This document shows, in pieces, positions 986 through 27,775 of a stretch of 64,000 nt of DNA. Where the stretch lies: NCBI GenBank assembly GCA_964344235.1, contig CAYFMJ010000001.1, positions 64,001 through 128,000 of the forward strand, given 5' to 3'. A program made the position numbers and the translations under genes. Position 1 is the stretch's first letter, and each line of letters begins with the position of its first letter. Origin of the DNA: an uncultured Methanosarcinales archaeon. Lineage in GTDB: Archaea; Nanobdellota; Nanobdellia; Woesearchaeales; GW2011-AR9. Below the pieces are notes generated by a model. That model ran no database searches, was not told where the DNA came from, and saw only the letters and a program-made list of their open reading frames with translations.

Positions 986-1738
986 TTAACGATAAATTTT
1001 AGGAGTGTGTTTTACTGTTGCGAGGTTTCTATTCCGTAATGCTTCTTCATATTTTAATTTTTTATTCCTATTGTTGAAGCCAATAACTTCCATATATTTC
1101 TTAACCCTTTTGTATCCGTTAATATAAATGCGGTGTGTTGTATAAGTTATGTCTCTCTTCCTATAATGCTGGGCTTCTTTTCTAAAATAATTATCTATGC
1201 CCAGTTCTTGAAATATTTTTGAACATTCTTCTGTTAGAATCTGCGATTTAAATCCACCTTGAACTATTGGGTATGCATTTGGTTTATGCTTTATTGTCAA
1301 ACAGAAATCAGCATCGGCTAAACCACGAAGAAACGCGGCTTTAATTTCCACATTACTCTCCAATATGCACTTTGGCACTGATATATTTCTTTTATTGTTT
1401 GGTATGCCAATGTTTCTTTTAAAGAATAAGCATATTGCTTTAGATTGTCTTCTTAGTTCTATTGAATTTTTCTCTTTCTTAATATCTTTGTGTAAACGTA
1501 CTTGAAATATGTCGTGCATTAATTTTCGGGCAAAGTCCATATGTTCTTCGTCCTTTATATTACCAGAGATGTTAATATTATAACAGCTTCTTCTTTTGTT
1601 GTGGTAAATACCAATATGCCCATCGCCAACAATAATTCCAATTAATTCTGCCAATTCTGGCGTAAGATGAGAAGGAAGGCAAATTCCTGCACTTTTATCT
1701 CCATTGCTTAATTCTATACTAGATAAATCAAATTTCAT
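986..1738 (-). CDS. Free-standing double-motif LAGLIDADG endonuclease
   Basis: Motifs LAELIGIIVGDG and FLRGLADAD. GGTGA Shine-Dalgarno (SD) precedes ATG 1738. Confidence 0.85.
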   Translation of the reverse strand: MKFDLSSIELSNGDKSAGICLPSHLTPELAELIGIIVGDGHIGIYHNKRRSCYNINISGNIKDEEHMDFARKLMHDIFQVRLHKDIKKEKNSIELRRQSKAICLFFKRNIGIPNNKRNISVPKCILESNVEIKAAFLRGLADADFCLTIKHKPNAYPIVQGGFKSQILTEECSKIFQELGIDNYFRKEAQHYRKRDITYTTHRIYINGYKRVKKYMEVIGFNNRNKKLKYEEALRNRNLATVKHTPKIYR

Positions 1739-1892: not shown

Positions 1893-2024
1893 GGGTCAGT
1901 GGCCAAGTGGCTAAGACTAGTCTAGATTCTAGACTAGTAGTAAGCGGCCCCCTGCAGAGGGGCAGATCGAGGGAAGTACTTAGATTCTAAGTGCTCTCGA
2001 ATTCGAGTCCCTCCTGGCCCTCCA
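1893..2024 (+). tRNA. tRNA-Cys(GCA) with two introns (1916-1943 at 23/24; 1974-2001 at 53/54)
   Basis: Acceptor GGGTCAG/CTGGCCC, U73 discriminator, encoded CCA, anticodon arm GCCCC-CTGCAGA-GGGGC, T arm GAGGG-TTCGAGT-CCCTC. Each intron forms a 4-bp central helix with two 3-nt bulges. The spliced product is 76 nt. Confidence 0.92.
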
Positions 2025-26590: not shown

Positions 26591-26701
26591 AGAGTGATTT
26601 AGGAGGTGGTTTTTATAAGATTTGTGTTTGTAATCATTGTGGAGTGGTTTCAATTTTATTTTAGTTACTTTTATAAAATAATCATAGTTGAAATGTTCTA
26701 T

Positions 26702-26894
26702 GCGGACGTGCCGGAGAACTCACTTCGTTCGTGCTCCAACAAACGAAGTTTGTCCGGAGTGGTCAAACGGGACGGTTCGTTTGGCATTACGGTGCCAAGT
26801 GAGTCCATACTCAAATGCTAAAACCATTTCCTGATTTAGCGTAGAGCTATCCGTTGGTTTAGTACCTACGCAGGTTCGAACCCTGCCGTCCGCA
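26702..26894 (+). tRNA. tRNA-Leu(CAA) with three introns (26717-26759 at 15/16; 26776-26808 at 30/31; 26816-26848 at 37/38)
   Basis: Acceptor GCGGACG/CGTCCGC, A73, long variable arm, T arm GCAGG-TTCGAAC-CCTGC. The spliced 84-nt product has anticodon arm ACGGA-CTCAAAA-TCCGT. BHB central helices are CCGG/CCGG, GGAC/GTCC and CTC/GAG (relaxed). Confidence 0.88.
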
Positions 26895-26943
26895 CTTTAT
26901 TATTGTATTCTTTCTTCTTAATTCAACTTTTAAATTGTAATTT

Positions 26944-27019: not shown

Positions 27020-27775
27020 ATGAATACAAAAATAAATCCGGAGGTTGCAGAGATCCTAGGAGCCTTTATAGGAGATGGGTGGCTTGAAAGCTCATTAGGT
27101 GCGATCTACATTACGGGTGATAAAACTGAGGATAAAGAGTATTATGATGCATTTTTAGGCCCTTTGTTTAGTGAACACTTTTCTCCCGTCACACCACAGC
27201 AATTCCCGTACTGGAATGTATATGGAATTGGTTCTTCTAAGAAAATAGCAATTGAGAAGTGCTTGAGTCTCGGTTTTCAACCAGGAAGTAAAGCACTCGT
27301 TGCAAAAATGCCAGACTTTATTATGAAAACACAAAATGTTGAGGTTAAGAAAGCTATTCTAAGGGGTATCTTTGACGCTGATGGATGTATATGGTTTGAT
27401 AGATCAAGAGCCAAGACATCTAACGAATGGAAGAGAAAATATCATTATATTCCAATTATAGAAATTTCCTCTTGTTCACAAAATTTATTACAACAAATGA
27501 AAGAAATCCTAACTACTTTTGGAATAGAATCACTTATTATACTAAAGAGTAAAGCGGGAAGAAAATTCAATAGGAATCGACATGATTCTTTCTCTTTAAA
27601 AATAAGGAAAATTGACCATGTTAAAAAATGGTTCAGTATTATTGGTTCTAGTAATTCAAGACACCAAACGAGGTATGCTGTTTGGAAAAAATTCGGCTTT
27701 CTTCCGCCAAGGACAAATATTAACCAAAGAAAGCAAATTTTAGCGGGGAAATTAGATCCTAAGAGTTTCTATTAA
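27020..27775 (+). CDS. Free-standing double-motif LAGLIDADG endonuclease
   Basis: VAEILGAFIGDGW and ILRGIFDADGC. Confidence 0.87.
   Translation: MNTKINPEVAEILGAFIGDGWLESSLGAIYITGDKTEDKEYYDAFLGPLFSEHFSPVTPQQFPYWNVYGIGSSKKIAIEKCLSLGFQPGSKALVAKMPDFIMKTQNVEVKKAILRGIFDADGCIWFDRSRAKTSNEWKRKYHYIPIIEISSCSQNLLQQMKEILTTFGIESLIILKSKAGRKFNRNRHDSFSLKIRKIDHVKKWFSIIGSSNSRHQTRYAVWKKFGFLPPRTNINQRKQILAGKLDPKSFY

Follow-up and report, generated by a model that had tools for sequence, protein, structure and literature searches.

Multiple-intron tRNA genes are known in the Thermoproteales Pyrobaculum, Thermofilum and Caldivirga (Sugahara 2007/2008, reviewed in PMC4033280). The tRNA-Leu(CAA) gene described here and the genome that carries it have several properties in common with that group: up to three bulge-helix-bulge (BHB) introns per gene, insertion at both canonical and non-canonical sites, relaxed motifs of the HBh' and hBH types, a large share of affected tRNA genes, and a rapid gain and loss of introns. 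[quoted passage not shown] The lineage also differs, being a mesophilic-type DPANN lineage with small genomes, and the Leu(CAA) gene showed no sign of intron transposition.

Within DPANN, multi-intron tRNAs have been published for ARMAN-1, ARMAN-2 and N. equitans (PMC4033280). Broad-specificity endonucleases described for the group are the epsilon2 enzyme of ARMAN-2 (PMC3488258), the (alpha-beta)2 enzyme of N. equitans, and, in other DPANN members, an alpha4 enzyme with an 'L3' loop (PMC5829648); Kaneta et al. linked the EndA variants of DPANN to a greater number of disrupted tRNA genes and recommended curation by hand (PMC5829648). The present genome belongs to the same superphylum, and it likewise combines non-canonical and multiple introns with a tRNA set that standard finders leave incomplete.

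Two more distant systems are also of interest for comparison. The pre-tRNA-Glu of Methanopyrus kandleri has a canonical intron and a D-loop intron of the HBh' type (PMC5829648). Here, too, a D-loop HBh' intron occurs together with an intron at 37/38, and the endonuclease has no specificity loop; however, M. kandleri has two introns, and its (alpha-beta)2 enzyme was found to work inefficiently at the HBh' site (PMC5829648). The second system is a eukaryotic tRNA gene that has three introns in one tRNA, with splicing that interacts with folding of the precursor. Unlike the gene described here, it is nuclear and depends on a different endonuclease complex. The three introns that we observed equal the published maximum and do not exceed it.

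The window, i.e. the whole 64-kb stretch of DNA that was analysed, corresponds to G000:C1:64001-128000, where G000 is the genome under study. Read from the sequence, its positions 26702-26894 (forward strand, 193 nt) hold a leucine tRNA gene in four exons with three introns, 43 nt long at 15/16, 33 nt at 30/31 and 33 nt at 37/38:

26670..26678, forward strand: TATA-like box TTTATAAAA, read directly, with its centre ~28 nt 5' of the tRNA start.
26702..26716, forward strand: exon 1, tRNA positions 1-15 (acceptor 5' strand, U8, D-stem 5' strand, A14, G15).
26717..26759, forward strand: intron 1, 43 nt, at 15/16, of the HBh' type, identified by its motif and by the copy in genome G126.
26760..26775, forward strand: exon 2, positions 16-30 (D-loop, D-stem 3' strand, G26, anticodon-stem bases 27-30).
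26776..26808, forward strand: intron 2, 33 nt, at 30/31, identified by its motif and by its presence in 14 family genomes.
26809..26815, forward strand: exon 3, the 7-nt micro-exon ACUCAAA, positions 31-37 with the anticodon CAA, identified by its invariance in orthologues.
26816..26848, forward strand: intron 3, 33 nt, at the canonical 37/38 site, relaxed and hBH-like.
26849..26894, forward strand: exon 4, positions 38-73 (anticodon-stem 3' strand, 15-nt variable arm, T-arm, acceptor 3' strand, A73).
26895..26925, forward strand: T-rich trailer, read directly; likely an archaeal terminator, a putative function.

When joined, the four exons make 84 nt, which ARAGORN folded into a tRNA-Leu(CAA); the acceptor stem has 7 bp, the variable arm is long and base 73 is A73. 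The variable arm of 15 nt with a 3-bp stem, the A73 and the anticodon CAA are those of a type II tRNA-Leu. The first bases of the gene are GCGGACG and the last are CGUCCGC plus A, and a perfect T-arm stands ahead of the 3' strand. Removal of the introns restored the standard cloverleaf, as seen both in the ARAGORN fold of the joined exons and in their identity to an intronless Leu(CAA) orthologue in genome G012: 80/84 bases match, and the four differences are two compensatory pairs. An intronless Leu(TAG) paralogue in the same genome (G000:C4:34287-34370, reverse strand) has the same length and could be aligned with the spliced product position for position without gaps. The identity of the gene, its exon and intron coordinates and the 7-nt anticodon micro-exon, all given in the original prediction, were upheld by the ARAGORN fold and by the motif check. 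Positions 26702-26894 are thereby confirmed as a genuine three-intron tRNA-Leu(CAA) gene.

We also observed that a 3' CCA is encoded in the intronless Leu(TAG) paralogue and is absent from the three-intron gene (compared at window positions 26894-26900); reading of the sequence gave no CCA at the 3' end of exon 4.

As had been anticipated, standard scans missed the gene. ARAGORN, run with and without the intron option, reported no tRNA at the locus and none anywhere in the 64-kb window. The Rfam tRNA model did not find the gene at its gathering score, and relaxing the cut-off to E <= 10 for the region around the locus did not recover it either. We used a custom parser that lists all BHB-like introns and gives a cloverleaf score to every combination of at most three. 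The top parse was exactly the four-exon model, and the next-best global parses had non-Leu anticodons and lower scores. In a control, however, dinucleotide shuffling of the interior gave an equally high score in 3 of 40 cases, so the parser is permissive and weakly discriminating when used alone, and the comparative evidence is decisive.

The introns were assessed by the rule that a BHB motif has a 4-bp central helix and is cut between the second and third bases of each 3-nt bulge (a slash marks the cut). In intron 1, the central helix has 4/4 pairs (CCGG with CCGG), the 5' bulge is AG/A, and the inner helix consists of 2 bp, an internal loop and then 8 bp; the outer helix is absent, as in the HBh' type. 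The end of this intron is a copy of the exon's CCGGAG, and the intron lies inside a 6-nt direct repeat. Seven registers lead to an identical mature RNA, and a BHB with a 4/4 central helix is formed solely at 15/16. Intron 2 has the best BHB of the entire precursor, with 4/4 central pairs (GGAC with GUCC), bulges GG/U and AU/A, an 11-bp inner helix and a 1-bp outer helix. In intron 3, the central helix has 3/4 pairs (CUCA with AGAG, one A-A mismatch) and the 3' bulge CU/A is canonical; the 5' cut borders an 8-bp helix whose register is off by 2 nt, and there is no clean 5' bulge. With the anticodon stem formed, the minimum-energy fold of the intron 3 precursor is a cloverleaf with the canonical 3' bulge and a 3-bp central helix. 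Opening of the 2-nt-shifted 8-bp helix was computed to cost ~3 kcal/mol, and a strict BHB ~10 kcal/mol.

The motifs fit the published relaxed classes HBh' and hBH. The third motif had been described as relaxed in the original prediction, which agrees with its 3/4 central pairs. For introns 1 and 2 the 4-bp central helices and the placement of the bulges stood, while the strict hBHBh' form did not, since their outer helices have 0 and 1 bp; none of the three introns makes the strict motif with two 3-nt bulges and outer helices.

Two other intron features were considered and rejected. A direct repeat around a palindromic tetramer is not a general intron signature, being confined to intron 1 (6 nt) and one Pro intron. 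A box C/D arrangement in intron 3 was looked for by eye; relatives have a UGAUGA-like word and no D box, and neither arrangement occurs in G000. A BLAST search of the whole genome with all three introns found no similar intron elsewhere, and therefore gave no evidence of intron transposition.

For the comparative analysis, 113 other genomes of the family were searched for orthologues and shared introns. Intron 2 was present in 14 family genomes (G000 and 13 others). Intron 1 was common to one other genome, G126, with 89% identity and the same BHB core. An alignment of 13 orthologues (A2) showed the micro-exon bases ACTCAA to be invariant, while both of the flanking introns vary. Exons were 95-100% conserved among orthologues, and introns diverged. 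In the intron 2 BHB, 99.5% of the alignment cells were paired, compared to 27-43% in slid registers, and three compensatory pairs were present, including the series C-G / U-G / U-A in the central helix. The anticodon stem, made of the last bases of exon 2 and the first bases of exon 4, was 100% paired across orthologues; two of its pairs covary, being UA/AU in seven sequences and CG/GC in six, and exon 2 as a whole was either invariant or covarying. In the central helix of intron 3, three pairs are invariant, and the fourth, A-A here, is A-U in six genomes (UGAG), where the helix reaches 4/4. All three introns, then, have the central helix of the BHB rule in full here or in orthologues, and the structure is conserved with covariation in relatives. 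The box TTTATAAAA is also found 25-45 nt upstream of the orthologous genes, which is consistent with a promoter role. As a DPANN tRNA gene with three introns and its anticodon on a micro-exon, the locus is a clean example and is comparatively well supported.

The 96%-complete assembly yielded neither a second Leu(CAA) gene nor a further CAA anticodon arm or close copy, and TTG makes up 17.7% of the leucine codons in the genome. The splicing enzymes, both EndA and the ligase RtcB (C6:21402-22718), are encoded in the genome, as expected for protein-spliced introns. We consider it very probable that the only detectable Leu(CAA) gene is driven by its TATA box, has three BHB introns and is spliced by EndA and RtcB intron by intron; removal of intron 2 before intron 3 is the most likely order. 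The gene structure is shown by the present data, and we infer the enzymes, the order of splicing and the expression of the gene.

The pathway would run as follows. Transcription from the gene's own TATA box would give a precursor of ~193 nt. The single EndA would cut it at six sites, RtcB would join the four exons, and CCA would be added afterwards. If the 7-nt anticodon exon were freed on both sides, it would be held by one base pair; therefore, cutting and joining would proceed intron by intron, so that one side of this exon would stay covalently attached while the other side is ligated. Intron 2 would most likely leave before intron 3, because the anticodon stem that completes the intron 3 motif needs intron 2 gone, and intron 1 would be independent of both. 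According to the partition function, the central helix of intron 3 has a probability of 0.2 in the full precursor and 0.98 after removal of intron 2. The earlier suggestion of ordered splicing thus gained modest in-silico support. Counting against the model, the BHB of intron 2 is a minor conformer, with a probability of ~0.02-0.05 in every context.

The main alternative is that no pathway is obligatory, and that each of the three introns is cut independently of the others, whether all at once or in any order. We regard this as a serious possibility, though not as the probable course. The three BHB cores use non-overlapping bases and could coexist, and the central helix of intron 1 is predicted to be formed in every context (0.94-0.99). 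However, release of the 7-nt exon on both sides would leave it with its one base pair, and the intron 3 motif is predicted to form well only when intron 2 has been removed. In addition, the sequence shows that the central helix of intron 2 takes up bases 25-28 and so competes with the anticodon stem for A27 and C28.

A different concern is the exact model of a gene that is otherwise real. The 5' cut of intron 3 could be set by the shifted 8-bp helix, or introns 2 and 3 and the micro-exon could be handled in some other way. In the minimum-free-energy fold the A37/U junction indeed falls inside a helix, and a BHB-like alternative with an 8-bp inner helix can be drawn at 26814-26848. Still, this alternative would produce a 5-nt anticodon loop, while the 37/38 junction gives the same loop as in the intronless gene of G012. 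Moreover, in six orthologues a canonical 4/4 helix, extended by two inner pairs, lies at exactly the 37/38 register, and the runner-up parses carried wrong anticodons and lower scores, as described above. We judge such departures from the model very unlikely and retain the 37/38 junction.

In most relatives (G008, G045, G074, G075 and others) intron 3 opens with UCGUUUGAGU, a complement of the micro-exon ACUCAA (A2, columns 62-75). The end of intron 2 (GUGAGU) is likewise complementary to it. The UCGUUUGAGU element is absent from intron 3 of G000 in the same alignment. Judged by complementarity, three alternative partners of the micro-exon could influence the timing of splicing.

The endonuclease gene was located at G000:C13 (L021:1474-2076, reverse strand); it codes for 200 aa with the domains PF02778 and PF01974, and its residues align to all three catalytic positions, Tyr/His/Lys. 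The best PDB match was 1a79, the alpha4 enzyme of M. jannaschii, with E = 1.5e-37, an end-to-end alignment and no insertion. One copy was found in the 96%-complete assembly. By its sequence, then, the protein resembles the M. jannaschii alpha4 type, and the single gene points to a homotetramer; a second, very divergent beta subunit, or one encoded in the missing 4% of the genome, is possible. A broad-specificity endonuclease had been thought necessary for such a gene; the enzyme found belongs to neither the (alpha-beta)2 nor the epsilon2 type and is encoded by a single alpha4-like gene.

No inserted specificity loop (CSL, ASL or NEQ-type L3) was seen near the catalytic His, as the Tyr-to-His segment is just as long as in the alpha4 enzyme of M. 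jannaschii. This sets the protein apart from the EndA of N. equitans and of ARMAN-2: the segment is 6 residues shorter than in the N. equitans alpha subunit and ~5 shorter than in ARMAN-2. Therefore, the protein is an EndA without the loop named L3 in PMC5829648. At the N-terminal loop site, the sequence alignment showed a 2-residue difference from M. jannaschii. The N-terminus carries a Lys-rich extension of ~28 residues (MAKKK...KKK), which is conserved with variable length in Woesearchaeota homologues and which the M. jannaschii enzyme lacks. The homologues with 75-87% identity carry the labels Woesearchaeota or Nanoarchaeota, and this gives the placement of the organism.

Cleavage by the alpha4 type of M. 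jannaschii is reportedly confined to strict motifs (PMC4033280, PMC5829648); this counts against the proposed splicing, as does the relaxed form of all three motifs. The introns described here form a substrate set for the question of how an alpha4-like EndA deals with such motifs. We suggest, tentatively, that in this Woesearchaeota family, in which relaxed, non-canonical introns would interrupt most tRNA genes and the one EndA would have none of the known specificity loops, broad specificity may come from something new, either the Lys-rich N-terminal tail or stepwise refolding, with each splice making the next substrate. If true, the accepted link between EndA architecture and the disruption of tRNA genes would be broken.

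The Leu(CAA) gene shows why the tRNA sets of such genomes seem incomplete. In the 96%-complete genome, nine tRNA genes passed the Rfam threshold. At E <= 1e-6, Rfam recognised 8 tRNA genes in G000 and from 2 to 30 in its relatives (G000-G040, one family, completeness of 90% or more). Close relatives thus differ enormously in how far their tRNA genes are disrupted. The parser survey predicted about six tRNA genes with three introns and about six with two. As the parser is weakly discriminating, these genome-wide counts are predictions, not proofs. The predicted sites recur at 15/16, 30/31, 37/38 and ~43/44, and several of the predicted genes have a 7-nt anticodon exon. With about six three-intron genes predicted in one genome and multi-intron tRNAs already published for DPANN, the locus is not exceptional in its setting, contrary to what had been claimed for it.

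One of the predicted genes is a three-intron tRNA-Trp(CCA) at G000:C1:26799-26958 (reverse strand). In a 2026 preprint (10.64898/2026.05.13.725050), tRNA-Trp was undetected in 30 of 123 Woesearchaeales and split genes were suggested. A three-intron Trp gene, if typical of the order, may explain the 'missing' tRNA-Trp. Another tRNA-like gene, of type II with paired acceptor ends, lies at window positions 1893-2021 (forward strand); it was missed by both the parser survey and ARAGORN. The 5' strand of its T-stem (GAGGG) is ~28 nt away from the T-loop, which suggests an intron in the T-arm.

That the Leu(CAA) gene is a decaying pseudogene, in which the three insertions stay in and UUG is read by another tRNA, is extremely unlikely: the relaxed BHB motifs, the alpha4-like EndA, the failure of ARAGORN and Rfam to recognise the gene and the ability in principle of a U34 Leu(UAA) tRNA to read UUG (by established wobble rules) would all fit decay, but the exons are conserved while the introns diverge, 13 genomes show compensatory changes in the BHB helices and the anticodon stem, the promoter box is kept in orthologues, the search for another Leu(CAA) gene found none, and interruptions of this kind affect most of the tRNA genes in the 96%-complete genome, which cannot all be dead.

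Across the family, the Leu(CAA) gene has from zero to three introns, at no fewer than seven insertion sites (5/6, 15/16, ~20/21, 30/31, 37/38, the variable arm and ~59/60). This series of orthologues offers material on intron gain and loss. For example, in G118 (L029, reverse strand, ~50 nt before Leu(CAA)) we observed a 40-nt candidate intron at 5/6 with a palindromic CGCG central helix inside a 10-nt direct repeat. In G008 (L002:1442-1500), a second copy of the first 9 tRNA bases, part of an 11-nt repeat, lies 49 nt upstream. The G008 gene could have a fourth intron or a long leader, although the search for a clean BHB at this upstream copy found none. In both G118 and G008 a TATA box stands ahead of the first repeat copy.

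Downstream of the tRNA gene lies one further feature:

27020..27775, forward strand: free-standing LAGLIDADG_3 gene, 251 aa (Pfam E = 2.2e-9), 125 nt downstream of the tRNA and not part of it.

Such a gene between tRNA-Leu and RNase J was seen only in G000, G068, G060 and G008, that is, in 4 of ~15 orthologous loci. A tie between this gene and the number of introns was rejected, as G126, G054 and G015 have three introns without the gene. A tblastn search revealed four LAGLIDADG paralogues, at window positions 27020-27775 (forward strand) and 1049-1738 (reverse strand), at G000:C1:26179-26784 and at G000:C5:38396-38980. All four are within ~160 nt of tRNA genes, namely Leu-CAA, the tRNA-like gene at 1893-2021, Trp and Gln.
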